DNA of 64,000 nucleotides from an uncultured Candidatus Saccharibacteria bacterium (GTDB lineage: Bacteria; Patescibacteriota; Saccharimonadia; Saccharimonadales; Saccharimonadaceae), in NCBI GenBank assembly GCA_947305655.1, contig CAMZEA010000001.1, positions 62,211-126,210 on the forward strand, in the 5' to 3' direction. The position numbers were made by a program, and so were the translations under genes. Below, piece after piece: positions 8,801 through 62,235 of this stretch. Below the pieces are notes generated by a model. The model saw only the letters and a list, made by a program, of their open reading frames with translations. It was not told the DNA's origin and searched no databases. The first letter of the stretch is position 1. The number at the start of each line of letters is the position of its first letter.

Positions 8801-9059
8801 TCTGTACTTTGTAAGCCTCGGGGCCAATGAAGTTTGCGAGGCGGTGGCGCATGTTGCTCGCGGCGGCTTCGGTGAAAGTTAGACACAAAATATTATCCGG
8901 CAAAACGTCAGTCTGTTTCAGAATATTTGCGACGCGGACGGAGAGGAGCTGAGTCTTACCAGTACCTGGGCCAGCGATGACTAATAGTGGGCCATCAATA
9001 TGGTCGACGGCAGCGCGCTGCTCGTCGTTCAAGGAATTGTATGCTTGTTCGAAATCCAT
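5874..9059 (-). CDS. UvrD/PcrA-type SF1 helicase fused to a C-terminal PD-(D/E)XK (RecB-family) nuclease
   Basis: Helicase motifs AGPGTGKTQ, LLDEYQDTN, AVGDDDQAIYGFQGA, KNYRSS, VHSAKGLEYDYVF, FFVAITRARAELY. C-terminal GGKIDRIEID...VSDFKTSK...YKIQLYFY nuclease motifs. Start set at ATG 9059 (MDFEQAY), preceded by TATAAT-N6. The track extension to 9221 overlaps the upstream gene. Confidence 0.9.
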   Translation of the reverse strand: MDFEQAYNSLNDEQRAAVDHIDGPLLVIAGPGTGKTQLLSVRVANILKQTDVLPDNILCLTFTEAAASNMRHRLANFIGPEAYKVQIHTYHSFGSYLLQEHRPDLQNSIDELDRFAMIREIQSQLKITSPLRGDWATKDIISAISSLKAAALDADDIAKIIARNEADNEAILEAIKDDLVATSEKYPKNLPAYESILEKIKDFVDESGNYITDRVEPIANIYYRSLAQILLERDEDASIATPLREWRKKYFEKDGDNNYIFKDIAATLKLADLAFILRHYSKALEEKGLYDYDDMILMAIKLLKEDDEKRYNAQERFQYILLDEYQDTNDAQAQLVALLTDNPANEGNPNIMAVGDDDQAIYGFQGANTSNFFEFNEKYHPKHILLSKNYRSSAAILELAHNVIEQGEDRFCKAPNVNIDKRITAENPPARTHISYEEFKSYQAEYSSVAKRIKALLDSGVKGNKIAIIAPKHKQLASILPYLHSLDILVSYEKRENILDSPKIDTIIEASKFLLKLAANPQYTDEFAFHIFSLDCFGISPAEMLGLIGDAHHNHRAIIEEMLKEERPEHIKAAANFCVELAAKTTTHPADYFIDTLATKFYPDYMDYDFYSNLNTLRTAVSKSENHKEKLAEFIARLDAYRAADIQILDRSPYHEAEDAVVVQTVHSAKGLEYDYVFMIAVDNDNWGTSKGNNDRLALPRNLEYVRHTGDSIDEKLRVFFVAITRARAELYMTYSLSDFNDKEHDRLRFLDAVEADNKITSRAIPAPFSDIIPSSSDELEPKYLTPDYWFDKYVPSDEVRKNLYQPKVEHFRLFPTQLNTYIDAKYAGPLSFFISYIIGIRGESNFNIDYGNCIHEVMDQLNKEQLSDEDAIKLFNELVDKADTTDDAKRDLRDRGDAELPGFLKAFGAKLRDIRTDSERSFFTENILLGNTLIGGKIDRIEIDDKSKTITVSDFKTSKPKFKWSDSDGTLNYKIQLYFYKFLIENSRDYAGFRVTKGRIDFISPDNSGFYHSLELEFDDNEAEQVKKLIAVVYQRIKDLDFPELEEGTTTKAFIDTLLA

Positions 9060-9075
9060 ACTCTTATTATATAGA

Positions 9076-10227
9076 CTATTTGCGGACGAGTATAGCGAGA
9101 GATTCGATGTGCGGTGTGCGCGGGAAGAAGTTGTATGGTGTAACTTTTTGGATTTCGTAATCGTCGGTAAGCATCGCAATGTCGCGGGCTTGGGTGATTG
9201 GATTACAGGAAAGATAAACAATTGTCTTCGGTTTGACTTCGTTAAGCTTTTCGATGAGTTTTTTATCGCAGCCGGCGCGTGGCGGATCTAGAATGACGGT
9301 CTGGTCTGGTGTAATATATTCTGTGACATCTTCGGATTTGGCGAGGACGCATTTCGCGTTTGTGCCTTCGGCGTTCTTTTGCATTTCTTCATAGGCGGCG
9401 CCGTTTACTTCAACAAGCATTAGATCTTTGTCGCGTGCGACGGAAAGACCGATGCTGCCGACGCCAGCGTAGAGGTCGAGGACGTTATTGGTCGTAATGT
9501 ATTGCTGGATTTCTTTTAGAACCATTTCATAGACCGGCAAATTGATTTGGAAAAAGCCGTTCGGTGAGTAGCTATATTTGTAGCCGCAGAGCGTGTCTTC
9601 GAGATTCTTCATAATTGGATGTGGCTGGCCATTGACGAATAAATCGCCGCTGACATTGCCCTGCTGGTCGCAGCGCAAAAGTAGCGATTGATAAGTGCGC
9701 GCTTCGGCATGTTCGGCGTTGAGTTTCGTGATGATCTCTTGGGCTTTGGCCCAGATTTCTGGGCGCTCGATACTGGACTGCGTGATTGGAACTTTGCGGT
9801 GTGTGCCACGTTCGTGGAAAGCTGGATAAATCTTGCCATCATTATTGTCCCAATAGAGCGAATACTCCATTTTGTTGCGATAGAAAAAATCTTTGCCGTC
9901 GGTAACGGTCGGCTCTGGATTAATGGCGAGATGGTTTTGCATGAAGCATTCTTGGACGAGCAGACGTTTCTGCTCGAGCTCATAATCGTAATCCATGATT
10001 TGCCATGGGCTGGTTGCGAGGAAGCATTTGTCTTTTGGCATAATGCGATGCTCGCTGGCATTAAAAATATGGCGCCCAACGCCTTCGCAGTAGCTGCGCT
10101 TGTCTTTTGTGACGTCGAATTCTACGGGCTCATTTGGCAAGGCATTCCAAATAAAGGCTTTCTTGCCGTCTTCGGTTTCGCCGATGCCCTGTCCGCCTGG
10201 GACGAGCTTGAGAATTGTGGTTAACAT
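9076..10227 (-). CDS. TrmA/RumA-family SAM-dependent RNA (uracil-5-)-methyltransferase
   Basis: LDLYAGVGSIGLSVA (SAM motif), ILDPPRAGC, YLSCNPITQARD (catalytic Cys motif). TGCTATAAT-N7-ATG upstream. Confidence 0.85.
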   Translation of the reverse strand: MLTTILKLVPGGQGIGETEDGKKAFIWNALPNEPVEFDVTKDKRSYCEGVGRHIFNASEHRIMPKDKCFLATSPWQIMDYDYELEQKRLLVQECFMQNHLAINPEPTVTDGKDFFYRNKMEYSLYWDNNDGKIYPAFHERGTHRKVPITQSSIERPEIWAKAQEIITKLNAEHAEARTYQSLLLRCDQQGNVSGDLFVNGQPHPIMKNLEDTLCGYKYSYSPNGFFQINLPVYEMVLKEIQQYITTNNVLDLYAGVGSIGLSVARDKDLMLVEVNGAAYEEMQKNAEGTNAKCVLAKSEDVTEYITPDQTVILDPPRAGCDKKLIEKLNEVKPKTIVYLSCNPITQARDIAMLTDDYEIQKVTPYNFFPRTPHIESLAILVRK

Positions 10228-10278
10228 ATCTGTTATTATAGCATATTTTCCCCTGTTATTGGTGGTATAATAGTGCTA

Positions 10279-11217
10279 ATGAAAAACGTTATAGAAGTCA
10301 AGCATTTAACGAAAAGTTATAAACAAAATAAGGCCGTTGACGATCTGAGTTTGACGGTAAAAGAGGGTGAGATTTTGGGCCTTCTCGGCCCGAATGGTTC
10401 GGGCAAAACGACCACAATGAACTGTATTCTCGCTTTGCTAAAATTCGATGACGGAAAGATTTCGATTTTTGGTAAAGAAATGGCGCCGGATTCATATGAC
10501 ATTAAAGCGAAAATTGGCGTCGTGTTTCAGGAAGTTGCAGTCTTTGACGAATTGACGGTCTATGGAAATATCGATTATTTCTGTGGCCTATATATCGAAG
10601 ACAAAGCGACGCGCGCGCAGTATGTTGAAGATGCGTTAAAGCTTGTTGGCCTCGAAGAAAACAAAAACCAATATCCGAAGCAATTGTCCGGTGGTTTGCT
10701 CCGTCGTTTGAATATCGCGTGTGGTATCGCGCATAAACCAAAGCTCATCTTCCTTGATGAGCCGACGGTCGCTGTTGATCCGCAGAGTCGTAATAATATC
10801 CTTGAAGGCATTAAAAAGCTCCGTGATGACGGCGCGACGATTGTTTACACGACGCACTACATGGAAGAAGTCGAGATTCTTTGCGACCGCGTGATTATTC
10901 TTGACCATGGCAAGATTATTGCTGAAGGCACGAATGACGAGCTTAAGGCGCTCGCGAAGATTGAAGAAAAAGTTACGATTGAGGTGGCTGAGCTTTCACC
11001 GAAGCAACTTTCTGGTTTTGAAAATATCAAGAATGTTGATACTGTTAGCTATGAAGATGGAATTTTAAAAGTTGTGTTTGGCAAAGGCAAAAATAATCTT
11101 GCCGAGATGATTGATTATTTGAAGGCAAATCGCATTCAATATAGCCGCATTTTTGCTGAACGCCCAACGCTTAATGATGTATTTCTCGAGCTTACCGGCA
11201 AGGAGCTTCGCGACTAA
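10279..11217 (+). CDS. ABC transporter ATP-binding protein
   Basis: Walker A GPNGSGKTT, signature LSGGLLRRL, Walker B LIFLDEPT. Start set at ATG 10279 by TGGTATAAT-N7-ATG. Confidence 0.9.
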   Translation: MKNVIEVKHLTKSYKQNKAVDDLSLTVKEGEILGLLGPNGSGKTTTMNCILALLKFDDGKISIFGKEMAPDSYDIKAKIGVVFQEVAVFDELTVYGNIDYFCGLYIEDKATRAQYVEDALKLVGLEENKNQYPKQLSGGLLRRLNIACGIAHKPKLIFLDEPTVAVDPQSRNNILEGIKKLRDDGATIVYTTHYMEEVEILCDRVIILDHGKIIAEGTNDELKALAKIEEKVTIEVAELSPKQLSGFENIKNVDTVSYEDGILKVVFGKGKNNLAEMIDYLKANRIQYSRIFAERPTLNDVFLELTGKELRD

Positions 11218-12374
11218 TGTTTTGGCATAACTATAAGTATGCGCTAAAGACGCTCGTGAAGAACAAGTCATTGGTTTTTTGGACGCTTGCCTTTCCGTTT
11301 ATTCTTGCGATTTTCTTTAATCTCGCGTTTTCTAGACTTCATGATTATGACGTGTTCGAACCTTTCGACATCGCCGTCGTGCGCGATGACGCATATAGAA
11401 AAGAAACGGTATTTGCAGAAGCATTTGGCTCGCTAACGCGTGGCGATGAGCGTCTATTTAAAGCAAAATTTTCGACCCGCGATGAAGCAGAAAAATTGCT
11501 TAGTGAAGAAAAAGTTGAAGGCATCGTATATGTTGAAGATGGCCAGGCACATGTGAAGATTAAAAAGAACGGCACAAATCAGACTGTGCTAAAAATGGCG
11601 ACTGAACAAGTTGCGCAGAGTGCCGGTATGATCAATGATATTGCGGCTGCCGAGGCTGAACGCTCTGGCGGAGCGATGAACCAGTTTGAGATCTACGCAA
11701 AGGCAGTTGAGATTGTCCAGAATGCAGAGCCGAAAATTGAGGACGATTCGCACGTGATGAATGTAGTTTCGATTGAGTTCTTTACGCTTATCGCGATGGC
11801 CTGCATGCAGGGCGCGATGCTCAGTACGGAGATGCTCAATCGTTGTCTGCCAAATCTCTCGCACCGCGGCAAGCGCGTAGCGATTGCACCAACGAAAAAG
11901 AGCCGCGTAATTCTCAGCAATACTCTCGCTGGCTATACGGTGCTGCTCGTGTCCGTGATTTTATTAATTCTATTTATGCGCTTTGTGCTTGGTGTAGATT
12001 TTGGCACCCATACTTGGCTGATTATGGCGCTAGCGGCGGTCGGATCGCTAACTGCGACGATGATGGGCATGCTACTTGCCGTTGCGTTCAAAATGAACGA
12101 TAACGCGAAACAAGTAGTCGTGTTGTCTGTTACGATGGTCGGTTGTCTGTTTGCTGGCATGTTTGGCGGTATGAAAATCATATTCGATGAGGCTTGCCCG
12201 TGGATGAACAAAATCAACCCGGTTGGCCTAATTACGGACGGTTTTTATTCCCTGCTTTATTACGAAGACGCGACGCGCTTCATCGTGAATGTCGTAAGCT
12301 TGCTAGTAATTGCGGCGGTATTCTTCGTATTGTCGGTAAGAAGTTTAAGGAGGGCGCGCTATGACAGTATCTAG
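11217..12374 (+). CDS. ABC-2-type transporter permease
   Basis: TAATG overlap with the ATPase gene. N-terminal TM, large loop, then a C-terminal cluster of about 5 TM segments. Confidence 0.8.
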   Translation: MFWHNYKYALKTLVKNKSLVFWTLAFPFILAIFFNLAFSRLHDYDVFEPFDIAVVRDDAYRKETVFAEAFGSLTRGDERLFKAKFSTRDEAEKLLSEEKVEGIVYVEDGQAHVKIKKNGTNQTVLKMATEQVAQSAGMINDIAAAEAERSGGAMNQFEIYAKAVEIVQNAEPKIEDDSHVMNVVSIEFFTLIAMACMQGAMLSTEMLNRCLPNLSHRGKRVAIAPTKKSRVILSNTLAGYTVLLVSVILLILFMRFVLGVDFGTHTWLIMALAAVGSLTATMMGMLLAVAFKMNDNAKQVVVLSVTMVGCLFAGMFGGMKIIFDEACPWMNKINPVGLITDGFYSLLYYEDATRFIVNVVSLLVIAAVFFVLSVRSLRRARYDSI

Positions 12375-13512
12375 AGCTTTCTGGAAGATTGCCCTGAAGA
12401 ATATCGGGACGATTATTCTCTACACGGGTCTACTAATAATGTTCGGCACGATGAATATGAGTTCTGGCGCATCTACGACGCAGTTTGAAGCGACGAAGCC
12501 GACAGTTGTGGTATTCAACCACGACAAAGAGGCTGGCGTCACGAAGGGGCTTATTGAATATCTCGATAAAAACGCCGAGATAGCGAAAGATTATGCAGAC
12601 GATGACCGCTTGAAAGATGCGTTGTTCTACGAACGCGTGATGCTCGTTCTCGATATCCCGGAAGAATATCATCAAGAGTTTGCGCTCGGTCATGAGCCGG
12701 AGTTAAAGATGCGTTCTTCGTCTGGGTATAGTGCGGAGCTCGCAAAAGTTATTGTGCGCCGATATCTTTCGGCGGCAAAGGCTTACACTTCGCTTGGTTT
12801 AAATGATGAGGAGTTGAGAGCAAAAGTCGAGGAATCGCTTGGGAACGAAATTGTCGTAGAGACTGCGTCGGCAGCCGATACTTCTAAGTATACGGTTGCG
12901 ACACGCTACTTTAGCTTCGCAAACTATAGTATTCTCGCCTGCGTCATTACGATTATTTGTCTAATTATGATGTCGTTTAATCGGCTCGAAGTTAGGAAGC
13001 GTAACCTAGTGAGTAGTATTGAAATCTCGAAGATGAACCGTGTGCTACTGAGGAACTGTTGCATCTATTCGTTGGCTGTTTGGCTATTCTTTGTAGCGAT
13101 TAGTTTCTTTGTTGTCGGGTTTGATGTAATGTGGGGCATTCATGGCCTGCTGTATGCTACGAATGCGTTGATATTTAGCGGTTGTGCTACGACTGTAGCA
13201 TTCCTCGTCAGCCACTTCGTGAATAGCCAGGGCGCAGTAAGCGGCATGATGAATGTGATTGCGCTCGGTTCGAGTTTCCTTTGTGGCGCGTTCGTGCCGG
13301 CGGAATATTTGCCGGACGCCGTGCTTGCGTTTGCGCATATTATGCCAAGCTACTACTTCATTGATGGCAGCAACAAGATTATGGCGCTAGAAGATTATAG
13401 TTTCAATTCTCTGCTGCCAGTTTTCGTCAATATGGGAATCGTGTTGGCGTTTGCGATTGCTTTTGCGTTGATCACGAATTATGTATCAAAGAAGAAGCAA
13501 AAGATAGCATAA
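12361..13512 (+). CDS. ABC-2-type transporter permease (second subunit)
   Basis: 14-nt overlap with the previous gene and the same topology (N-terminal TM, loop, C-terminal TM cluster). Confidence 0.8.
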   Translation: MTVSRAFWKIALKNIGTIILYTGLLIMFGTMNMSSGASTTQFEATKPTVVVFNHDKEAGVTKGLIEYLDKNAEIAKDYADDDRLKDALFYERVMLVLDIPEEYHQEFALGHEPELKMRSSSGYSAELAKVIVRRYLSAAKAYTSLGLNDEELRAKVEESLGNEIVVETASAADTSKYTVATRYFSFANYSILACVITIICLIMMSFNRLEVRKRNLVSSIEISKMNRVLLRNCCIYSLAVWLFFVAISFFVVGFDVMWGIHGLLYATNALIFSGCATTVAFLVSHFVNSQGAVSGMMNVIALGSSFLCGAFVPAEYLPDAVLAFAHIMPSYYFIDGSNKIMALEDYSFNSLLPVFVNMGIVLAFAIAFALITNYVSKKKQKIA

Positions 13513-13515
13513 AAA

Positions 13516-13542
13516 ATACCCCCGATTTGGGGGTATTTTTTT
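13516..13542. terminator. Bidirectional intrinsic terminator between convergent ABC operons
   Basis: AAAAAATACCCCC-gattt-GGGGGTATTTTTTT, with an A-tract on one side and a T-tract on the other. Confidence 0.75.
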
Positions 13543-14850
13543 CTATTCGTAACGCAATGCGTCGATTGGGTTTTTCTTCGAGGCTTTTCTTGCCGGCAAG
13601 GTGCCTGCGAGGAAAGCGATGAACATAATGATTGCGACGATTGTAATCATTGTGAGCGGTTCGAAGATAGTGAGCGTGAAGGTTGGGAAATCCGCAAGGA
13701 AGGTTTCGCGTGCGATTCCGTTCACGATATTACCGATGATCATCGAGACGACAACACCGACGGCGGAGCCCCAGAAGCCAAGGAGGATTGCCTCGCAACT
13801 AAAGCTTGCGAAGACTTTGCCGTTGCTCATGCCGAGAGCCTTGTCGAGGCCGATTTCCTTCGTGCGTTCCTGAACCGACATGAACAAGGTATTGATGATG
13901 CCGATAGAGGCTGCGACGAGTGCGATACCGCCGAAGATATTGAAGACGATGAGGATGGCGTCAAAGAAGACTTTGAACATGCCGACTTCGTCGTCAACAG
14001 ACATTGCCTTGAGGCCGATTTTTTCGAGCTCAGCTTTGACGCTGTCGATTTTTTCTGGATCAACATCGGCGGTTGCCTGAGAGCTGCGATTGAGCTCTGG
14101 TGCGTAGCCTTCGTAGTTAATCTCGTTGGCGTGCGTCCAGAAGGAAAGATTGACGCGGCTGCCGCCCATCGAAAGGATACCTGGGGCCTGGGTGCCGGAA
14201 ACCTTTACGTCGAGAATGGTCTGGCAATCGCTACGCTTGACAGCGCTCGTGCGGCACTTAAGGTCGCTAGGGACGGCGATTTGGACGGTTTCGCCGACGA
14301 TTTCACTGACGTTTTCGTAGCCAAGGGCTTTTGCCATGTCCTCGTTGATAGCGATTTCATATGGAGCGTCCTTGGCGGTGTTCGGCGAGACGCCGTTGCT
14401 CATGTCGAAGTTAATGCCCTCGACGACGAGGTTAATATTGATGCGATAACGCTTGTCGGTTCTGCTGCTCGTGATGTAGTCTGCGGTTGCGTTCGGGAGG
14501 GCATTGAAGACTTTGATGCCGTCGATTTTCTTCGCAGCCTCAATTTGCTCATCCTTGATATACATTGAGGCGTTTGCGTCGTCCTTATCCTCGGTGTATT
14601 CCTGCGGGCTATTACCGCTGAGCATGCTTGCCATGGTGTCATAGGCTTCGGTCGGCATCATTTCGAGATAACCGTCGCCGCCCATGTTCTCGATTTGCTT
14701 ATTCATCCAGTCATTCACGCCGGCGTTGATGGCGGAGTTGAGGATGATAGTGAAGCTACCGACGAAGATTGCAAGAATCGTTAGAATACTACGGATTTTG
14801 TTGCGCCAAAGATTGGAGTTGGCGTCATGAATGATATCTAGAACTTTCAT
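13543..14850 (-). CDS. FtsX/MacB-family ABC transporter permease
   Basis: N-terminal TM, about 250-aa extracytoplasmic domain, three C-terminal TMs. ATGA-type overlap with the ATPase gene. Confidence 0.85.
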   Translation of the reverse strand: MKVLDIIHDANSNLWRNKIRSILTILAIFVGSFTIILNSAINAGVNDWMNKQIENMGGDGYLEMMPTEAYDTMASMLSGNSPQEYTEDKDDANASMYIKDEQIEAAKKIDGIKVFNALPNATADYITSSRTDKRYRININLVVEGINFDMSNGVSPNTAKDAPYEIAINEDMAKALGYENVSEIVGETVQIAVPSDLKCRTSAVKRSDCQTILDVKVSGTQAPGILSMGGSRVNLSFWTHANEINYEGYAPELNRSSQATADVDPEKIDSVKAELEKIGLKAMSVDDEVGMFKVFFDAILIVFNIFGGIALVAASIGIINTLFMSVQERTKEIGLDKALGMSNGKVFASFSCEAILLGFWGSAVGVVVSMIIGNIVNGIARETFLADFPTFTLTIFEPLTMITIVAIIMFIAFLAGTLPARKASKKNPIDALRYE

Positions 14851-15557
14851 TTCTTAGCTCCTTTCTTAGTCTTGGCATCTTCGACGATTTCGCCATCTGC
14901 GATGCGAATCTGGCGCTTGCATTTTGCGGCGAGCTCTTCGTCGTGGGTGACAATGATTAGTGTGATGCCCTTCTCTTTATTGAGATCAAAGAGCAACTTT
15001 TCGATTTTGTCGCCAGTGGCGGAGTCGAGGTTGCCGGTTGGTTCGTCGGCGAAGATGACCTTCGGGTTGTTGACGATGGCGCGGGCAATACAGACGCGCT
15101 GTTTTTGGCCGCCAGAAAGGTCTTTGGCCTTGTTCTTGGCCTTATCGTCTAGCTCGACGACTTTGAGGGCTTCCATGGCGCGGCGCCTGCGTTCGCGGCG
15201 GCTGATGCCGGCGATCTTGAGCGGGAGGATAACGTTATTCAGTACGCTATCATTTGCGTTCATGAAGAAGCTCTGGAAGACGAAGCCGAATTCCTTGTTG
15301 CGTAAGCGGTTGAGCTTGCGGTTCTTGAGTTTACTGGTGCTCCTACCATTTAATGTTATTTCTCCGCTGGTTGGTTTGTCGAGAAGTGCGAGGAGATGCA
15401 TCAGCGTGGATTTGCCGGAGCCGGATTTACCGACGATGGCCACTGATTCGCCCGCATTTATCTCGAGGTTGAGGCCACGAAGCGCCTCGAACTTAGTATC
15501 GCGCTTTCCATAAACCTTTTTCAGGTTGCGCGTAGATAAAAGTGAACTTGTTGTCAT
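14847..15557 (-). CDS. MacB/LolD-type ABC transporter ATP-binding protein
   Basis: GKSGSGKST, LSGGQKQRVCIARA, IFADEPTGNLD. Confidence 0.95.
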   Translation of the reverse strand: MTTSSLLSTRNLKKVYGKRDTKFEALRGLNLEINAGESVAIVGKSGSGKSTLMHLLALLDKPTSGEITLNGRSTSKLKNRKLNRLRNKEFGFVFQSFFMNANDSVLNNVILPLKIAGISRRERRRRAMEALKVVELDDKAKNKAKDLSGGQKQRVCIARAIVNNPKVIFADEPTGNLDSATGDKIEKLLFDLNKEKGITLIIVTHDEELAAKCKRQIRIADGEIVEDAKTKKGAKK

Positions 15558-52826: not shown

Positions 52827-55800
52827 TTATTCCTCGTTCTGGTGCCCTGCTATACAGCGTACCGACAAGGCGTACCATTTATTGGTCGTAGAGTGGTTAT
52901 TGCCTAGATAGAGGTCGCCCCAGCGATTAACGACGACGGTTAAGCCTATGGTGCTTTCGCTGAGGGATGGGCCCGGCTTCGAGCTGCCGGTCCAGATTTT
53001 GCCCTGAGAACCGCGAGATGAGCCGGTGTTGTCGACGCTATATGAGCCAGCGAGGACGAAGTTCACTGGGTAGGATAGCCAGTTATTGGTAATATCGAAG
53101 GAGTGGCTGATTTGTCCGTCCCCGCCCATTAGCTGATCGAGTGTGGCGGTTTGCTGATTGTTGCGGCCGGTCGGTATATGCCAGTTTGCCGGGCAAATGT
53201 CTCCGCCGGCGTATGCAGCGCTTCTGCTGCTTGTCCCATGGCCTGCTGTGGCGGTATACCAGTTGTAGTGCCCGCCGTATGCGTACCATGAGGTGACATT
53301 ATCGTTATCGTTGTAACTTGCTGGATTATTTCGGTCGATATCTGCGGTACTGAATGAGATATGGCTTTCGCAGTCGTTGCTGATTTCTTGGCATTCAGCG
53401 ATGGTCTCTGTGGCTTTTCCGTGGAACTTCTGATTGAATTCGTTGATAAAATCCTGGGTTGGGTTGTTCGTATTGGTACTATTAATGGTTAGGCTCGGGC
53501 TGTTTAGATCTAGTCTCAAGTTCTCAATCATCCACCAGTGCCCGTCTGCGAGTTTCGCTACCGCATAGACATTATCGTCGCGTTCATCGCGAAGAGCGAT
53601 AACGGTGTTTTGTGGCGCAGATGCATACGGCTCGTTATTTTCATTGAAGCTTTGCATCGTTACGCTCGTCTCTGCTGATTGCCACTGGGCGTAGAGATAA
53701 ATATCGTCTACGGCTGCGAGAGTAATATATTGGTTTGGGCCATACATCGTGCCGGTGCCGTCAGCTTTTGTATTCCAGCCAATGAAGCCGTTGCCGGCGA
53801 GACTAAAGTTAGGCGCAGTAAGCACCGCGGTATGGTCTGGCGGGCAGATTTGCTGTGCCGGCATCTCGCCCACAGCAGAAGTATTATTCTTCAGGTAGTG
53901 GACGTTCGTACAGTTTTCCTCCCAGAGCGCGTACAAGGTGGTCGTGTCTGCTACATTGAACGATTCGCCGGCGTAGAACATCTCTTCTTCGTAGACGTAG
54001 TTTTGGCCGTAGATCTTGTCTTTATTATTCTCTTCGATCCAGGCGGTGAAGCTGTAGTGTTCGCGGGTTGGCTCTTCGTCTGTGATAGTAAACGAATAGC
54101 TATGGCCAGTTGCGGTTGCGGTTTGCGCCTCTGGCGCATCTTCGCCGCCGTTTGCATCGTAGTTCAAGGTAAAGGTTCTCTCGGTGTTGTTTGTGGCCGA
54201 GTATGGATTGCCCGTAACACAGCGAGCAGAAAGGAGATAAGGGAGCGCTCCGAGTTGTTGCCCCGCGATAAACCCTGCCTGTGACGATTCTACGCCAGGC
54301 TTCATGAGCATTGTTGCGTAGACATTATAACTACTATTGCCGTGGTCATATAGAGCGTCGCTGCCGAGATAGAAGCCGACCAGGCCGCGGTATAGGTAAT
54401 CCGTGCTTTGCCCAAGCATTGAGCCGAATCCTGGGGCATAGATGCCTGCGAACATAAAGTTGTTCGGGTAGCTTGTCCATGTGGCTAGCTGCTCATCCAT
54501 CGTCTGGGTGTCATCTGGGTCGAGGGCGTCTTCGAGATTGCGGTAGTCGCCTCCGTCGTCGCCGCTAGGTACGCGCCAGCCGCTTGGGCAGATTTCATCG
54601 CTATCGTCTTCGTTGTCTGTGCCACGGACGTTGTCTCCCGTGTAAAATCCGCCATAGCCATATAGCGCAGTATCATCGTTGGAGCCGTCGCCGCGGTTTG
54701 TCACGCTACTTATGTCAGAGTCGGCGAGTTCCGTGCGAATATTTTCAATTGTCCAGCAGTTGCCGTCTGCAAGGCGAGCTACTGCGTAAGTCTCGTTATT
54801 GCGTTCGTCTGTGAGGGCCGTAATTTCGCCTTCCGCGAGGTCAGCGCACTTGAATCCAGCCATTTTACCTGCCGATTTAATCCAAATGGCATAGAGCTTG
54901 AGCGAGCCACTATTTGGCATAGTAATGGTTTGGTTTGGACCGTACATTATGCCGGTACCGTCGGCTTTTGTACCCCATCCAGCGAAACCATAGCCTGCTC
55001 TACTGAAGTTTGTAGCGCGGAGCATGACGTCTTCGCCTGCGGTTGCGGCCTGGTCCATCATTGCGCCTTCGGCGTCGCTGCTGTTTGCGTAGTAGCAGAT
55101 GCCGGTACAGTCGCTATATGAGAATATGACGTTGTTCTCTAGCGTGAAACTGTCGTCGAGAGTAGATGCTGCGCCTACGGTGAGGGTAGCAAACGCAATA
55201 GACACTGCGGCGACCGTGATGATAGCGGCAGAGATTTTGTGGTGTTTTTTGTAACAGATAAATACTATGAATGTAGTCAATGATGCGATGAGTATTATGG
55301 CTGCAGTTTTGATGGTCGCTGCGTCAGAATCCGTTTTCGGGTTATTGCCGGCTGGTTCGCTTGCGGCGGGAGTAATTTCCGCTTTGGCCAGAGTAGTGGT
55401 CGGTTTCGGGTCCGGTTCTGGGTCTGGTGCGACGGTGACGGTTTGCGTAGCAGTTTGACCCTCGTCGTTTTCGTAGGTTATTTTGATGGTCGTGTCGAAT
55501 TGTTGCCGCGCAAGAGATGGCGATTCGATTTCGTTGCTATAGATCGCTTTGAAAACGAGGCTGAACGTGCTGCCAGAAGCTATTGTATCTTCGATGTTGC
55601 TGTTGTAATCGTAACTAAGATAGTTATTGCTCGCGCTGATATTTGCGCTAAGGATATGACGGGTTTTTGTGTCGGAATTTTCGAAGGTGAAGGTATATTC
55701 GACGTACTCGCCGACATTGTGGAAGACGATACTATTTGTTGCGGTCGTATCCGAGAAGTCCGAAATTGAAGCCTCGGTTTGAGCGGATTTGTTTGAAATT

Positions 55801-55922
55801 ACCGCGTTTTTTATCTTAAAGACCTGCTCTGCCGCATGTGCGGGGCTAATAATTGCGATTGCACTCAGAACCGCAAAAAAGGCGCCAAAGCATGCACCTA
55901 CAAATATACCTCTCTTTTTCAC
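52827..55922 (-). CDS. 1031-aa cell-surface protein with an internal sortase-type sorting signal, Listeria-Bacteroides repeats and two Fibrobacter-succinogenes-paralogous-type domains
   Basis: GTG start and signal peptide ...ISPAHA/AE. NPKTD + hydrophobic stretch + YKKHHK at aa 194-229, then a second hydrophobic anchor. Three F.GW...G.MYGPNQ...LYA.W repeats. Two copies of YAVA.LADG.W..EN...YGG.Y...CP..W..P. Confidence 0.85.
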   Translation of the reverse strand: MKKRGIFVGACFGAFFAVLSAIAIISPAHAAEQVFKIKNAVISNKSAQTEASISDFSDTTATNSIVFHNVGEYVEYTFTFENSDTKTRHILSANISASNNYLSYDYNSNIEDTIASGSTFSLVFKAIYSNEIESPSLARQQFDTTIKITYENDEGQTATQTVTVAPDPEPDPKPTTTLAKAEITPAASEPAGNNPKTDSDAATIKTAAIILIASLTTFIVFICYKKHHKISAAIITVAAVSIAFATLTVGAASTLDDSFTLENNVIFSYSDCTGICYYANSSDAEGAMMDQAATAGEDVMLRATNFSRAGYGFAGWGTKADGTGIMYGPNQTITMPNSGSLKLYAIWIKSAGKMAGFKCADLAEGEITALTDERNNETYAVARLADGNCWTIENIRTELADSDISSVTNRGDGSNDDTALYGYGGFYTGDNVRGTDNEDDSDEICPSGWRVPSGDDGGDYRNLEDALDPDDTQTMDEQLATWTSYPNNFMFAGIYAPGFGSMLGQSTDYLYRGLVGFYLGSDALYDHGNSSYNVYATMLMKPGVESSQAGFIAGQQLGALPYLLSARCVTGNPYSATNNTERTFTLNYDANGGEDAPEAQTATATGHSYSFTITDEEPTREHYSFTAWIEENNKDKIYGQNYVYEEEMFYAGESFNVADTTTLYALWEENCTNVHYLKNNTSAVGEMPAQQICPPDHTAVLTAPNFSLAGNGFIGWNTKADGTGTMYGPNQYITLAAVDDIYLYAQWQSAETSVTMQSFNENNEPYASAPQNTVIALRDERDDNVYAVAKLADGHWWMIENLRLDLNSPSLTINSTNTNNPTQDFINEFNQKFHGKATETIAECQEISNDCESHISFSTADIDRNNPASYNDNDNVTSWYAYGGHYNWYTATAGHGTSSRSAAYAGGDICPANWHIPTGRNNQQTATLDQLMGGDGQISHSFDITNNWLSYPVNFVLAGSYSVDNTGSSRGSQGKIWTGSSKPGPSLSESTIGLTVVVNRWGDLYLGNNHSTTNKWYALSVRCIAGHQNEE

Positions 55923-56040: not shown

Positions 56041-56126
56041 TGGTGCTGGGAGTAGGAGTCGAACCTACGAAGGCCGAAGCCGGCAGATTTACAGTCTGAT
56101 GCGTTTGACCACTTCGCTATCCCAGC
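56041..56126 (-). tRNA. tRNA-Tyr (anticodon GUA), long variable arm, CCA encoded
   Basis: Sense GCTGGGA...CAGA-CT-GTA-AA-TCTG...GGTTCGACTCC...TCCCAGC-A-CCA. Own promoter TTGATA-N17-TGCTAAAAT at about 56140-56170. Confidence 0.9.
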
Positions 56127-56172: not shown

Positions 56173-59100
56173 TTATTGTCCGTAGCCTTCGAGCATAGCT
56201 GCGCGGAAGTCTTCAATTAGTTGTTGGTCCGCGGTTTCGTCTGTTGACCCTTGATAGAACCAGTCGAGTACCGCGGAGTTGTCGCGGAGCCCCATGCCAT
56301 TCGTCTCGTCTAGCATCCAGACATATTTCCTGGTCGTATTGTATGTGCTGGTCTTGGTCGTGTGATCATAGTATCTATTTCTATCTGGCCTGCCGCTGAA
56401 TGTTGATAGCTCGTATTCGCGATCTTTTGTTTCGTTATCGACACCGAGTATGGCCTCGACGAGGTAGGCGATAGTGCCTGTGCGGTCTGATCCTTGCGTG
56501 CAGTGGAAGTAGACGTTTTTATTGTTAATTACTGCTTGCATGAGTGTTATGAGAGAATCGCGTGTCCATTCATAGTTGTATTTTGATTGGGTTTTAGCTG
56601 AAGAATCATTATATTTGAAGTTGTAATGAATGGTCATTTTTCTAATATATTCTGGCATCTGTACCGTAGCGTCACTTTCGCGGAGGTCGAGTTCTGTTGT
56701 AACTCCTAGTTTTTCTAGAGCACTAATATCGTTTTGCGCGATGGCTTCCCCGCGTATTAGTCGTCCGTACTTAACTTTGTGCCCATCGATACCGGTTAAG
56801 CCGCCGAGGTCTCTGACGTTTCTTGCTGCCGGCAAAGTGATGACGCGAGTTTCGCCCGTCGCTTTGACATATCCGTAGACTGTTGGGTCGGTTGCTGATT
56901 CCCATTTATATAACGTGCCCGGAATCATGTTCGTAATTTTGCCGTTATCGGTAGTTACGTAGTCGGCAAGGCCTTTTATCGTTTTGTCTTCGTTGACTAT
57001 GTAAACGTTTATATTGCCACTCGTTTTAGTATCATATGCCTCTTGGCGATCGCAGTAGTTCACGCCGGTGTTGTTTTTGTCATAACGATATTCGTAGTAT
57101 TCTCCAGTTGTTTGATTCCAGTCTGGCGAGAGGTCTGGGCTACTGTTCATCTTACACTGGTGGCTTTCGCTATCGAAATTGTCGCGTAGATTGTTCCAAA
57201 GGGCTGTCTTACTAGTATTCCAGCTATCGATGTTTTGGTAGTAGCTTTGAATAGCGTCGCTCATTACGTTATGCTCTACGATTTCTTCAGGATCCTTTGG
57301 CTCTTCTGCTTCGAGCTTTATGTACATGTTGGACATCGTTACCGTTATAAAGCGTTTCGGGGCCATATCTGTCTTATTTGGATATGCGCCAAACCATGTA
57401 GTTAAATCGAATGTTGGACTCGTGCGTCTGTCGAGTTCTATGCGTTCTGTGCCGTTAATAGAATAGTATAGCACCCCGTCTTCCCTTATTAGCTTTATGC
57501 TTGTTGTCGTCGAGATGGCGGGAGCTGGATTTGCGCTTCTCGCCGAACCTGTTCCGTCTACGTTCGAATTTATCGTGATCGATGATGATGATCTGCGAAT
57601 AATTATGCCGGGAGCTTTACCAGTCGGATCTTTTTCGCTCATGAATGTTTGTTGGTTATCATTCCAATTGCTTGCTTCTTGGACGTAGTCTTTAATTTCA
57701 AAATAAATCTCATAGTCTTTGTTTATGTTCGTAGTATTATAGAGAGCTATTCCGGTATCAATAAATTCTTTACCCGTAACGGCTGTCGTATAATTGCAAG
57801 TATTGCCTGAGACGTTCCCGTGATAGACGCCATCCGCCTTTGACGAAGCGAAAATACAATCGCCCGGATTTTGCCAGACAATTGGCATCGTATTGAATGT
57901 CCAGTGTGCATAGAGTACAGCATCGCCAGTGACTACGTAAGGCCATTCGATTTTTGTACCATTTTCCGCCTCCGTGAACCAGCCATCGAATATGTAGCCG
58001 TCACGGGTGACCTCTGGGGAATCGCTTTCTTGGAGTGTTTCGTCAACTCTTTTGTTATATGTTATATTGGACTCGTTGTTTTGTGGAACAAAGGTTAGAG
58101 TGGCGTTTACGTAGATTTCGACTGCGACGCCTACGACTTTGTTTGATTGTTTACCTACAATGTTTACCGTTGTAGTTCCCTTTGCGATTGCCGTTACAAC
58201 TCCATCTCCGTTGATAGTCGCAATATCTTCGTTGCCCGTAGCGAACTCGAACTGTTCAATTTCGCTTTCGTTTTCGATTGTAATCTGGTTAGTTTCCCCA
58301 ACTTCTAACGATAAGCTAGCTGGTGAAATTGCCGCCTGCGAGACGTCTTTCTTCCAATGTGCATGATACGTGACCTCGCCCATAATTGGCGTAGATGTGG
58401 TTAGTTCTTCGCCCCCAGTCTCTGTAGTAAACCAGCCTTCAAATACGTGGTTTTCGAGTGTTGTAGCTGGGAGGACGGAGATAGTGCTCCCCTCGGTGAC
58501 GCCAGTAATGTCCGCTACATCACTACCGCCATGTGCATTAAAGTGGACGATATACTTCGGCAATGCGACGCTAACGTTTAGCGTTGCTTCAAGCGTCGAG
58601 CGTGAACCTACGAGAGTAATTGTTGTGCTGCCGGCTGCTACGGTTGTAATATTACCGTTTTCGTCGACAGTGACGATATTGGTATTATCGCTGCGGTACG
58701 TGAATGGCTCAAGTTCGTTTGCGTTTGTTACGTTGACTTGTGCCGATTCGCCGCGCGTGATCGAAATATTAGATACGATAGCATTCGTGATGTCCATCGT
58801 CCAGTGGGCCTCGACGTTAGTGTCGTCCGTAATAGGTGTGCTGGTCGTGAACTCCGTATCGCTGTTTTCTAGGAACCAGCCATCAAAGACGTAGCCCGTG
58901 CGAGTCGGATCGGCAGGAAGCGTTCCAATTGAGCTTCCTTCTTCGACATCGGTAATGTCGGCGATTTCGTTTCCGCCCTTGGTGTCGAAGTGAACGGTGT
59001 ATCTTGGGAGAGTTACCGTGACTGGGATTTCGAAGATTTCGCCAGAGCGGCTGCCGGTGAGTACGATTTTCGCTTGGCCATTAGATACTGCAGTAACCTT

Positions 59101-62064
59101 GCCGTCTTGGTCTATCGTGGCGATTTGGTCGTTGCTAGACGACATAGTGAATGGCTCGATATTGTTCTTGTTGGTTATAGTTAGATATGCTTCGTCTCCG
59201 CGAGTAAGTTCGAAGGAGCTTGGCGATGCAATAGCCTGCTGAACGTTACGTGCCCATTTTGCGATGATCTTAACATCTTCGGTAGGCGTGTAGCCGTCTG
59301 AGATTTGCGTATTTCCAATGAACCAGCCATCGAAAATATACTTTTTGCGTGTCGTAACCGGGAGCGTCTCGATTGAGGTACCCTTTTCGATTTGCATTTT
59401 CTTATAGGAGTTGTCTAGGGTGCCCGATTTCGCATCAAACTCGACTTGGTAGTAATTCCAATCCATCTCGCCAAGGCGAATCGATAGATTGCTCAGTGTA
59501 CCGACTAGAACATTCTTTGGTTCTGGGTCTTCGGTGCCATCATTTGGATAAGCGCCAAACCATGTGGTCTGGTTGAAGTATTGATTGAAGTCGCTGACAT
59601 CCTGGAGCTCGAATAGGTTGCCGCCGTTTATCGAGATATAGACGATTCTATTGTGGCGAACGATTTTAATAGTTTGGAACTCGGTGTATGGCTTAATGTA
59701 GTTTGCCTCAAGGTAGCCAGAGCCCGTTTCGTTTAGGAGCGCCGAGCGAATGTCGATATTGTTTCCGCTCTTGCGAACAACGACGCCTGGCGATTTTGCT
59801 TGAGGAAGTGGGCTAGGTGGATTTGGGAGTTGCGATGTAGGATGCGTCGTGCTGATTTTGTTGCTAACAAAAGTTGCTTGCGCCTCAACTTGATTTGGTG
59901 AGTAGCTGTCGATATTGAAGGAGATTTCATAATCTTTATCAAAGTTTTCTGAAGTGTTGAGGGAGATTCCGGTGTCTACGAATGTCTGGCCCACAAAGTT
60001 AGTATCGCCAAATTGGCAGGTGCTGCTCGTTGTGATTGTGCCGTCTTTGCCGTTGAATATACAGTCGCCCTCGACGCTGAAAACTACTGGGAATTTGTCT
60101 TCCCATACGGCGTATAGGGTTACGGTGCCGCTGGTTGCAAGATTGATTACTTCTTCGCCATCGCTATATTCTTTTGTCGTTGCATTTGGATTTGTCGACC
60201 AGCCCTTGAAGTTGTAGCTTGCGCGCTGGAATTGGTTAGCGCTTAGATCGGCAACTTGATCGTAGGTCATGTCCTGCGGGTTCATTGAGCCGGTCGCATC
60301 GTCGGCGTTTTTATCGAATGCGATAGTGTATTTTCTTGCGGTCCACTGCGCGTATAAATGATACTCTCCGCCATCTACGCTCGTGAGATTTTGGACCTCT
60401 TCTTTATCTCCATAGCCAGTGCCGGAATCATTTGGATTTACGCTCCAGTGATCAAAGTCGTAGCCTGGGCGCGAGAAACTGTTCTCCGCAAGTGAGGTTG
60501 GTGTTTGATCGTATGTGAAACTCTGAGAAGCCGTAGCGCTGCTATTTAGGTAGTTGGCATGGAAGATGACCGCATATGTGTTTGCGCGATAGTTCGCGCC
60601 GATTGTGGCGTCTTCTGCGCCTATCGTGAAGCTTCGCGAGGCGTCAGTAACGCCGTCGGTCCAGTCGACGAAGGTATAGCCGGTTTTGCTATCGGCCGTT
60701 AGTGCGCCGGATTGCTCGAAGTAGTATTTTTGACCACTTATAAAGTCATCGCTTGAAATGGAGCCGGCATTTTCGCCAAATGTGACGGTGTACTGGTTGC
60801 GCACGTAGTAATACTCGATGAGCATTTCGCCGTCGCCTGTGATTTTCTTGCTCTGTGCAGCAGGGGCCGTGAAGCCGGTATATGTCTTGCGATCTGGCGT
60901 AGCAATGGTGTCGGTCGTGCCGGTTTCATTGTCGGTTTCAGCTAGGGTGTAATGGTCGCCGCCGCCGATATTCTGTTTGTAGTGCTTGACGGTATATGCG
61001 GTGTTCGTATTTGCGGTCCAGAAGGCATAGAGCGTAATTTCGCCTTCGGTGCGAAGATTGATGACGGATTCTTCATCGGTGTAGCTGTTGCCAGAGTCAT
61101 TGCTTTCGGTGTTCCAGTGATTGAAAGTATATCCTTCGAGGACGAAGCTGTTTTTGCTGAGTGGTTTCGCCTGGTCGTAAGTCATGGTTTGCGCACTCAT
61201 GCTACCAGCAGCGACGGAGCTATTCTTGTCGAAGATAATTTGATAAGTGTTCGCCTCGTAAATAGGCTTGATTGTCGTCGTTTCGGTTAACTCGATTGTG
61301 ATTGGATTAGCGGTTGCGTCGTTACTCCAACGGTCGAATACGTAGCCTACGCGGTCGTTTGCGGTCAATGTAATCTTAGTGCCATATTTGTATTCGCCGG
61401 TAGGGAGAGAAGATGTGGTATTCTCGATATCGCCGAGAGCGAATGCGATCTTTTCGCGGTCATAATCGTAGATAATCTCGGTGCTGCCATCTTCGGCAAC
61501 GGTTGTGGTTTTGGCGGCAGGCGCAACAAAGCCAGTATAGGCCTTCGTCGATGGCGTGACGCTATTCCCGACCACTCCGGTTTGTGTTTCAGATTCAACT
61601 ATAGAGTAATCGTCGTTTTCGAGGTTTTGCTGACGGTGAATGACGGTATATTTTGCGGTTACTTCCGGTTCGGAAGGAGCATCAGGCTCGTCTGGAGTGG
61701 ATGGAGTTTGGTTGTCTGACGGCTTTGTGCTTGGAGTGACGTTAGACGGCGCAACTGGCTCTACGGGGTTTTCGTCCGGTTCCGGAACCGGTTCTGGCTC
61801 CGGGTCGACATGCGGAATTGGATCGACTGGCTGTGGTTCTGGCGTTTCTCCTGGATTAATCGTGATATGGATCGGCGTGATAATAAGTAGCGGCACGAGA
61901 ACAAGTGTTGAAATAAAAGACGTAATGAAGGCAAGAGATTTTTTGGTTTTAATTTGGCGAATAAGGAAAGCAATTGAAATTATAACCAATAAAATGGCTG
62001 CTATCCAACGAAGTATACCCGACGCATTTGATGCGTCAACAAAGGTATAGTACTCTGTTTTCAC
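56173..62064 (-). CDS. 1963-aa membrane-anchored giant surface protein with a C-terminal CX5R tyrosine-phosphatase-like domain
   Basis: GTG start with AGGAGG SD and TGTATAAT -10. Two N-terminal TMs and a P/E-rich spacer. Two MucBP-like modules, nine Listeria-Bacteroides-type repeats, three Big_2-like modules and two LamG/ConA-like modules. C-terminal NVRDLGG...VYFHCTQGSDRTGT. Confidence 0.9.
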   Translation of the reverse strand: MKTEYYTFVDASNASGILRWIAAILLVIISIAFLIRQIKTKKSLAFITSFISTLVLVPLLIITPIHITINPGETPEPQPVDPIPHVDPEPEPVPEPDENPVEPVAPSNVTPSTKPSDNQTPSTPDEPDAPSEPEVTAKYTVIHRQQNLENDDYSIVESETQTGVVGNSVTPSTKAYTGFVAPAAKTTTVAEDGSTEIIYDYDREKIAFALGDIENTTSSLPTGEYKYGTKITLTANDRVGYVFDRWSNDATANPITIELTETTTIKPIYEANTYQIIFDKNSSVAAGSMSAQTMTYDQAKPLSKNSFVLEGYTFNHWNTESNDSGNSYTDEESVINLRTEGEITLYAFWTANTNTAYTVKHYKQNIGGGDHYTLAETDNETGTTDTIATPDRKTYTGFTAPAAQSKKITGDGEMLIEYYYVRNQYTVTFGENAGSISSDDFISGQKYYFEQSGALTADSKTGYTFVDWTDGVTDASRSFTIGAEDATIGANYRANTYAVIFHANYLNSSATASQSFTYDQTPTSLAENSFSRPGYDFDHWSVNPNDSGTGYGDKEEVQNLTSVDGGEYHLYAQWTARKYTIAFDKNADDATGSMNPQDMTYDQVADLSANQFQRASYNFKGWSTNPNATTKEYSDGEEVINLATSGTVTLYAVWEDKFPVVFSVEGDCIFNGKDGTITTSSTCQFGDTNFVGQTFVDTGISLNTSENFDKDYEISFNIDSYSPNQVEAQATFVSNKISTTHPTSQLPNPPSPLPQAKSPGVVVRKSGNNIDIRSALLNETGSGYLEANYIKPYTEFQTIKIVRHNRIVYISINGGNLFELQDVSDFNQYFNQTTWFGAYPNDGTEDPEPKNVLVGTLSNLSIRLGEMDWNYYQVEFDAKSGTLDNSYKKMQIEKGTSIETLPVTTRKKYIFDGWFIGNTQISDGYTPTEDVKIIAKWARNVQQAIASPSSFELTRGDEAYLTITNKNNIEPFTMSSSNDQIATIDQDGKVTAVSNGQAKIVLTGSRSGEIFEIPVTVTLPRYTVHFDTKGGNEIADITDVEEGSSIGTLPADPTRTGYVFDGWFLENSDTEFTTSTPITDDTNVEAHWTMDITNAIVSNISITRGESAQVNVTNANELEPFTYRSDNTNIVTVDENGNITTVAAGSTTITLVGSRSTLEATLNVSVALPKYIVHFNAHGGSDVADITGVTEGSTISVLPATTLENHVFEGWFTTETGGEELTTSTPIMGEVTYHAHWKKDVSQAAISPASLSLEVGETNQITIENESEIEQFEFATGNEDIATINGDGVVTAIAKGTTTVNIVGKQSNKVVGVAVEIYVNATLTFVPQNNESNITYNKRVDETLQESDSPEVTRDGYIFDGWFTEAENGTKIEWPYVVTGDAVLYAHWTFNTMPIVWQNPGDCIFASSKADGVYHGNVSGNTCNYTTAVTGKEFIDTGIALYNTTNINKDYEIYFEIKDYVQEASNWNDNQQTFMSEKDPTGKAPGIIIRRSSSSITINSNVDGTGSARSANPAPAISTTTSIKLIREDGVLYYSINGTERIELDRRTSPTFDLTTWFGAYPNKTDMAPKRFITVTMSNMYIKLEAEEPKDPEEIVEHNVMSDAIQSYYQNIDSWNTSKTALWNNLRDNFDSESHQCKMNSSPDLSPDWNQTTGEYYEYRYDKNNTGVNYCDRQEAYDTKTSGNINVYIVNEDKTIKGLADYVTTDNGKITNMIPGTLYKWESATDPTVYGYVKATGETRVITLPAARNVRDLGGLTGIDGHKVKYGRLIRGEAIAQNDISALEKLGVTTELDLRESDATVQMPEYIRKMTIHYNFKYNDSSAKTQSKYNYEWTRDSLITLMQAVINNKNVYFHCTQGSDRTGTIAYLVEAILGVDNETKDREYELSTFSGRPDRNRYYDHTTKTSTYNTTRKYVWMLDETNGMGLRDNSAVLDWFYQGSTDETADQQLIEDFRAAMLEGYGQ

Positions 62065-62159: not shown

Positions 62160-62235
62160 TGGAGCCGCAAATCAGACTTGAACTGATGACCTGCCGCTTA
62201 CAAGGCGGCTGCTCTACCAACTGAGCTATTGCGGC
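62160..62235 (-). tRNA. tRNA-Thr (anticodon UGU), CCA encoded
   Basis: Sense GCCGCAA-TA-GCTC-AGTTGGTA-GAGC-A-GCCGC-CT-TGT-AA-GCGGC-AGGTC-ATCAG-TTCAAGT-CTGAT-TTGCGGC-T-CCA. TGTAAAAT -10 upstream. Confidence 0.95.

Follow-up and report, generated by a model that had tools for sequence, protein, structure and literature searches.

A 64-kb stretch of Candidatus Saccharibacteria DNA (the window: 64,000 nucleotides of contig CAMZEA010000001.1, G+C content 48.5%) encodes, on its minus strand, a 1031-amino-acid (aa) surface protein precursor with a sortase-type sorting signal close to its N-terminus, directly followed by a second signal-like helix. We read this protein as a single precursor whose N-terminal part is a conserved anchor cassette, where a sortase anchors the N-terminal module (N-module) and the second transmembrane helix (TM2) exports, and possibly releases, the passenger that follows, and we put the probability of this reading at roughly 0.6. 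With much the same confidence, the cassette appears to be a portable leader of giant Flg_new-type surface proteins in Saccharibacteria and some Bacillota, working in a manner similar to the leader of the streptococcal Zmp proteases. An initial annotation of the window had left two readings side by side, fusion of two adjacent surface-protein genes and one precursor that is split by a sortase.

Saccharibacteria live attached to other bacteria, and their surface proteins are the machinery of this contact.

Layout of the precursor and continuity of its frame

The stretch around the motif reads EPAGN-NPKTD-SDAATIK-TAAIILIASLTTFIVFIC-YKKHHK-ISAAIITVAAVSIAFATLTVGA|AST, with SDAATIK linking NPKTD to the first transmembrane helix (TM1). 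Exactly three hydrophobic segments were found in the protein by Kyte-Doolittle hydropathy (aa 4-31, 201-226 and 229-255), i.e. a signal segment and two transmembrane segments where the initial annotation had placed them. The anatomy described there (signal peptide, module of about 135 aa, spacer, tripartite signal, second signal-like helix and a large extracellular remainder) is correct in all parts, and the region that it highlighted, 55167-55346, corresponds to aa 193-252 of the 1031-aa open reading frame (ORF). TM2 ends in V249-G250-A251|A252, by sequence rule a signal-peptidase-type site, and the basic loop YKKHHK supplies both the charged tail that completes the sorting signal and the n-region with which the internal signal peptide begins. 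Since 802 residues lie C-terminal to this loop, the sorting signal is not at the extreme C-terminus. In the passenger, both the FISUMP and the Flg_new assignments were above the Pfam gathering thresholds (PF09603, 57.6 bits versus 33.9; PF09479, 45.4 bits versus 27), and the NCBIfam models TIGR02145 (61.2 bits, cut-off 41.65) and TIGR02543 were matched as well. The coordinates of all parts are collected in Table 1.

Table 1. Parts of the surface-protein gene, with positions in the window
Feature	Position	Strand	Basis
Whole gene, 1031-aa surface protein precursor	52827..55922 (stop included)	minus	ORF list, GTG start
N-terminal Sec signal peptide, aa 1-30, predicted cleavage SPAHA|AE	55833..55922	minus	hydrophobic segment 4-31, conservation of A30
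N-module, aa 31-152, predicted immunoglobulin (Ig)-like beta-sandwich	55467..55832	minus	AlphaFold2, family search
Pro/Thr/Glu-rich disordered spacer, aa 153-193	55344..55466	minus	predicted local distance difference test (pLDDT) 30-48, length variable among orthologues
Sorting motif NPKTD, aa 194-198	55329..55343	minus	position checked on DNA, conservation of P195/T197
TM1, aa 206-223, TAAIILIASLTTFIVFIC, putative stop-transfer helix	55254..55307	minus	hydropathy, AlphaFold2 helix 201-226, family conservation
Basic loop YKKHHK, aa 224-229	55236..55253	minus	K226 and K229 nearly invariant, family loop charge
TM2, aa 230-251, ISAAIITVAAVSIAFATLTVGA, putative internal signal peptide or signal anchor	55170..55235	minus	A251 invariant, site at end of TM2
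Passenger, aa 252-1031, two Flg_new (InlB B-repeat) and FISUMP units	52830..55169	minus	Pfam, NCBIfam, AlphaFold2

No stop or frameshift was found in the window DNA over the region coding for aa 193-252. An internal translation start was also considered and rejected, because the only in-frame alternatives, TTG at L214 and GTG at V240, sit inside TM1 and TM2, respectively. Importantly, nine full-length relatives were retrieved by a whole-protein search; they show 46-95% identity and come from assemblies made independently (ENA, Logan and NCBI). In all nine, a single frame runs from the signal peptide through module, motif, TM1 and basic loop to TM2 (alignment A1). One of them, the 62%-identical orthologue P0005, is located on a 543-kb scaffold (locus L001, ERZ28654070 scaffold_3) with the same gene order as the window: a TPR protein, a giant Flg_new/phosphatase protein, the surface-protein gene, YhhN, AAA_33, YgjP and GH97. 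The architecture recurs in 13 further loci.

It is thus exceedingly improbable that two adjacent genes only seem to be one owing to mis-assembly, a sequencing error or an overlooked stop, an explanation which has nothing in its favour except that an internal sorting signal is odd a priori, and which is contradicted by an ORF that stays uninterrupted in independent assemblies down to 46% identity, by the synteny and by the further loci. The statement that the frame runs on with neither a stop nor a usable start holds in the DNA, the frame is uninterrupted in the orthologue alignment too, and the first of the two original readings, fusion of adjacent genes, is rejected as an assembly-level or recent event, all 126 hairpin-bearing cluster representatives of the family described below being continuous as well. 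An ancient domain fusion is a possible origin of the precursor. For annotation, the internal signals of this cassette should not be called gene fusions.

The leader family and the N-module

The extent of the family was determined by an exhaustive HMMER search with aa 1-260 as query (clusters at 50% identity, E<=1e-3). It took over from word-indexed searches, queried with either the first 292 aa or a profile of 28 sequences, which returned 0 and 1 matches, respectively, despite the existence of 95%-identical relatives; the latter had been found with the full-length query. The leader was matched by 289 clusters, always at the N-terminus; the matching proteins are 126-2904 aa long. Statistics on motif, hairpin, loop and sites refer to the best 150 of the 289 clusters; a hairpin of two helices follows the module in 126 of these, and most counts were taken over the 126. 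The other 24 are short sequences.

The sequence xPxTx occurs 0-15 aa upstream of TM1 in 125 of the 126 hairpin-bearing representatives. For P.T just before TM1 (again 125/126) the background is 9.7% per 24-aa window of the same proteins, and for the narrower pattern P.T[GNSD] the figures are 107/126 against 2.4%, so that the position of P.T before TM1 is far beyond chance. The loop between the helices invariably has a positive net charge (+2 to +10, median +4), a site of the type [AVSTIGL]-x-A, typically V-K-A|A, terminates TM2 in 114/126, and an N-terminal hydrophobic signal segment is present in 121/126. P195 and T197 are invariant in alignments A1, A2 and A4, where A28 is nearly invariant. 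In A2, which comprises 28 sequences with a mean column identity of 32%, invariance is confined to Met1, Y128, P195 and T197, and the residues at position -1 of both predicted signal-peptidase sites, A30 and A251, are nearly invariant (A251 is invariant in A1).

A Flg_new-like domain directly after TM2 was recognised in 97 of 116 sequences by a strict pattern, and in most of the rest by eye. The distal part of the passenger, on the other hand, is variable and consists of FISUMP, DUF285/BspA-type leucine-rich repeat (LRR), Big_2 or Y_phosphatase3 domains. What is conserved is therefore a leader cassette that begins with the signal peptide and the Ig-like module, continues with the sorting signal and the internal signal peptide, and includes the first Flg_new domain.

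Two FISUMP-family proteins (P0061 and P0120) start with about 30 residues followed by VPDTG or VPNTG, a transmembrane segment, a basic loop and another transmembrane segment, and have neither signal peptide nor N-module; they may represent mis-called starts, truncations or another reduced form. Free-standing N-module genes were also considered, and the one candidate that was checked, P0197, ends at the edge of a 644-bp contig. In several Saccharibacteria genomes paralogues are neighbours or share a contig, as at locus L005 (2..2620 on the minus and 6451..11742 on the plus strand), at L011, where 6903..9116 and 9974..14929 form a paralogous pair, and on contig CAMJDZ010000005.1, which holds the family loci L007 and L010.

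The fold of the leader was modeled with AlphaFold2 from aa 1-352 and an alignment of 13 sequences. In the model, aa 32-152 form a nine-strand beta-sandwich with pLDDT >90, and aa 254-349, after TM2, a second confident domain with pLDDT of about 85; confidence is low for the spacer and the hairpin. When the N-module was compared with the PDB by Foldseek, only generic Ig-like sandwiches were found (best E = 3e-4, TM-scores <=0.5), a search of PDB sequences with the family profile gave no relative, and Pfam and NCBIfam scans of the N-module gave no match. The model thus points to an Ig-like domain of an undescribed family, for which Pfam and NCBIfam have no model. An isopeptide bond within the N-module was considered and is not supported, the candidate Lys of the first strand not being conserved across the family.

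The sorting signal and the proposed maturation

Across the family the consensus around the motif is N-P-K-T-G-D-N, with Gly at position 5 in 83/125 representatives and Asp at position 6 in 92/125; elsewhere, position 5 is Asn (13/125) or Ser (7/125). The commonest motifs among the representatives are NPKTG (25), VPDTG (11), VPNTG (10) and NPKTN (8), while the full-length relatives have NPKTD, NPSTD, TPNTS, NPTTS, VPNTG and VPSTG, i.e. D, S or G at position P1'. SrtB of Bacillus anthracis recognises NPKTG with a required P2' Asp (PMC11987632), and judged by its sequence the family consensus NPKTGD is this recognition sequence, P2' Asp included. Candidate substrates of a sortase would be the peptides EPAGNNPKTDSDAAT and xNPKTGDx, and the consensus offers a pattern for spotting sortase targets in genomes from across the Candidate Phyla Radiation (CPR), to which Saccharibacteria belong.

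Profile matches also point to a sortase signal. Among the motif-TM1-loop segments of the family, the internal signals of P0121 and P0169 scored 16.0 and 15.9 on TIGR01167 (cut-off 15.9), other segments gave sub-threshold matches to NF033073 (doubled LPXTG) and NF033846 (NPXTG-anchored), and TIGR03063 was weakly matched. Moreover, a signal of the same kind is found at the usual place in an 864-aa Saccharibacteria protein (L008, 13577..16171, plus strand), which has a normal signal peptide and ends in VPDTGANSTPNTGD, a transmembrane segment and RKRKAKNEA before the stop codon. This C-terminus scored 22.6 bits on TIGR01167, the sorting-signal columns of the family hidden Markov model align to it, and the gene is preceded by a family member (9932..13141). 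The 864-aa protein also contains a Gly-rich region and InlB-type repeats, and VPDTGANSTPNTGD is a doubled motif. Doubled motifs occur inside family members as well (VPNTNDDTVVPNTG in P0121 and VPNTGTNPNTGD in P0246), which recalls NF033073. Sortases and sorted proteins have been reported from TM7 (PMC3812714), and more than half of the CPR genomes have a sortase family (PMC6744442).

Several observations weigh against a sortase acting on the protein in the window. Outside Microgenomates, sortases are patchy in CPR (PMC6744442). The window signal has Pro at position 2, Thr at position 4 and a hydrophobic segment followed by positive residues, but it has Asp at P1', whereas Gly, Asn or Ser follows the point at which sortases cut, it is not C-terminal, and it was not matched by any NCBIfam sorting-signal model, even at E<=10. 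The sortase-B-type label given to it in the initial annotation consequently suits the family consensus better than it suits NPKTD itself. A search of every ORF in the window and in 15 related loci (about 340 kb), using TLxTC-type regular expressions and phmmer with S. aureus SrtA and SrtB as queries, detected no sortase. Finally, all processing steps are inferred.

A further point against concerns the neighbouring gene (56173..62064, minus strand), which encodes a 1963-aa Flg_new/Big_2/Y_phosphatase3 protein. After a 19-aa tail this protein begins with two transmembrane segments separated by RQIKTKK, as does its L001 orthologue. In both, the hairpin lacks the PxT motif and a V-x-A site, and the window protein is devoid of the N-module as well, implying that a plain hairpin anchor can suffice. 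The start of the window protein resembles a pared-down leader. The full cassette is found on phosphatase-bearing homologues elsewhere (L008 9932..13141, P0141, P0155, P0203 and P0223). The initial annotation had asked whether homologues keep the hairpin without the NPxT pentapeptide: 125 of 126 representatives retain xPxTx, but this neighbour has a hairpin and no motif.

The neighbouring protein and its orthologue, together with the degenerate motif in the window and the outcome of the sortase search, are the arguments for an uncleaved double-pass hairpin which simply tethers two extracellular parts, with PxT(G)D in some other role, for instance capping a helix, directing insertion or accepting a glycan. 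We hold this to be unlikely, though worth serious consideration. Pro and Thr are fixed although the gap between the motif and TM1 can be anything from 0 to 15 aa, which is hard to square with helix capping and argues against a purely structural role; the consensus is a known SrtB recognition sequence, a like signal terminates the 864-aa protein, and conservation extends to the site that closes TM2. If the cut were made by a different kind of enzyme, e.g. a membrane-associated peptidase in sortase-less lineages, two fragments would result and no covalent link to the wall. That no sortase has been demonstrated for this genome and that P1' differs among close orthologues (D, S, G) would fit such a peptidase. 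However, both the tripartite layout and the consensus NPKTGD are peculiar to sortase signals, and the C-terminal copy of the signal passes TIGR01167, so that we consider this alternative rather improbable.

The topology of the precursor can be read directly from its sequence. The N-terminal signal peptide exports the Ig-like N-module, TM1 stops the transfer so that the basic loop remains cytoplasmic, and TM2 restarts export, now of the Flg_new/FISUMP passenger of about 780 aa. Because of this order of stop-transfer, cytoplasmic loop and re-export, both the N-module and the passenger are predicted to be extracellular, joined by the helical hairpin. In the maturation that we favour, a sortase would cut after T197 and attach the N-module to peptidoglycan, and signal peptidase I would probably cut after A251, since TM2 ends in a V-x-A site; neo-termini are thus predicted at T197 and A252. 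After both cuts, the hairpin (aa 198-251) would be left alone in the membrane, and the passenger would be held non-covalently by the wall-linked N-module or by the wall itself, or be released. If TM2 stays uncut, the hairpin would keep the passenger membrane-anchored. The initial annotation had described the C-terminal part as membrane-anchored and had overlooked the conserved signal-peptidase-type site at the end of TM2, because of which the passenger may leave the membrane.

A more far-reaching version of this scheme is put forward only tentatively. It would have two products, a wall-linked N-module and a freed passenger that binds its own former N-module, and the leader would be portable, horizontally shared and a general route. 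Such a route, which is doubtful to the same degree, would mount adhesins or effectors (FISUMP, BspA-type LRR, tyrosine phosphatase) that contact host cells, in Saccharibacteria and in some rumen Bacillota.

Known anchors, distribution and gene neighbourhood

The closest parallel is provided by the streptococcal Zmp/IgA1 proteases (ZmpA, ZmpB, ZmpC and ZmpD; MEROPS M26). As described in the literature, their N-terminus carries a signal peptide and LPXTG, followed by two hydrophobic segments with a second signal-peptidase site, and precedes, as in the present family, a very large extracellular passenger (PMC3518915; PMC7939560). The second hydrophobic segment is proposed to be a second signal peptide, and the same secretion model is put forward (PMC3518915). 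Of the two original readings the precursor split by a sortase is hence the better supported, and although unproven it is not without precedent, since the layout of the Zmp proteases is the same (PMC3518915).

The two leaders are likened by layout and not by sequence homology; solved Zmp structures do not include the leader. The Zmp motif is LPXTG, of the class A type, whereas the family has NP(K)T(G)D or VPxTG, and the Ig-like module of about 120 aa found in the family does not figure in descriptions of Zmp proteins. The Zmp passenger is an M26 protease (HEXXH), in contrast to Flg_new combined with FISUMP, DUF285-LRR or tyrosine-phosphatase domains; Peptidase_M26 was detected in none of 11 other family members scanned, and the only Pfam families in the window protein are Flg_new and Fib_succ_major. 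The phylum differs too, Saccharibacteria as opposed to streptococci. Because motif class, N-module, passenger and phylum differ and M26 was lacking in the 11 scanned proteins, the family would work like the Zmp anchor without being a Zmp family member.

Class B sortase substrates such as IsdC (NPQTN in S. aureus, NPKTG-D in B. anthracis) resemble the NPKTGD consensus and likewise have a transmembrane segment and basic residues after the motif, in line with the weak NF033846 and TIGR03063 matches. Their signals, however, end the proteins, while family chains continue for 780 to >2600 aa, and the window motif is without the Gly. With the canonical LPXTG anchor (TIGR01167) the family shares the tripartite layout, relatives reach the cut-off of this model and the L008 copy is C-terminal; the window signal differs in being internal and in matching nothing at E<=10. 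On this comparison the reading we prefer for the family is that of a variant, found in Saccharibacteria and some Bacillota, of a rare N-terminal sortase-anchor architecture, with an undescribed Ig-like leader domain as its basis. To our knowledge, this architecture has been described previously for streptococcal Zmp proteases only (PMC3518915). At least 289 clusters of giant surface proteins with one leader would turn what looked like an oddity of pneumococcal IgA1 protease into a general anchoring strategy.

The distribution was assessed by scanning species-representative genomes with a profile of a subset of sequences (A3). The scan gave 12 loci, all from Candidatus Saccharibacteria metagenome-assembled genomes of ruminant or gut samples, and the named members of the clusters are also all Saccharibacteria, several genomes of which carry two or more family copies. 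P0155, by contrast, is encoded on an AT-rich scaffold (L015, ENA ERZ28653836 scaffold_16, about 28% G+C), where the adjacent Der GTPase scored 531 bits against Bacillus subtilis EngA, compared with only 255 bits for Saccharibacteria Der, and where a DnaD-type protein is encoded as well. The closeness of Der to EngA and the DnaD-type protein indicate that this genome is probably Bacillota. Resting on that assignment, the family probably covers at least two phyla that share a habitat, which suggests that the cassette is common to rumen Bacillota and Saccharibacteria, possibly by horizontal transfer.

Downstream of the surface-protein gene in the window, a 248-aa membrane-protein ORF in its longest reading overlaps the last 17 codons of the gene (52827..52878). 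Its L001 orthologue matches YhhN in Pfam and has a 14-nt overlap with P0005. Two tRNA genes, tRNA-Tyr (56041..56126) and tRNA-Thr (62160..62235), both on the minus strand, are each located immediately upstream of one giant surface-protein gene.

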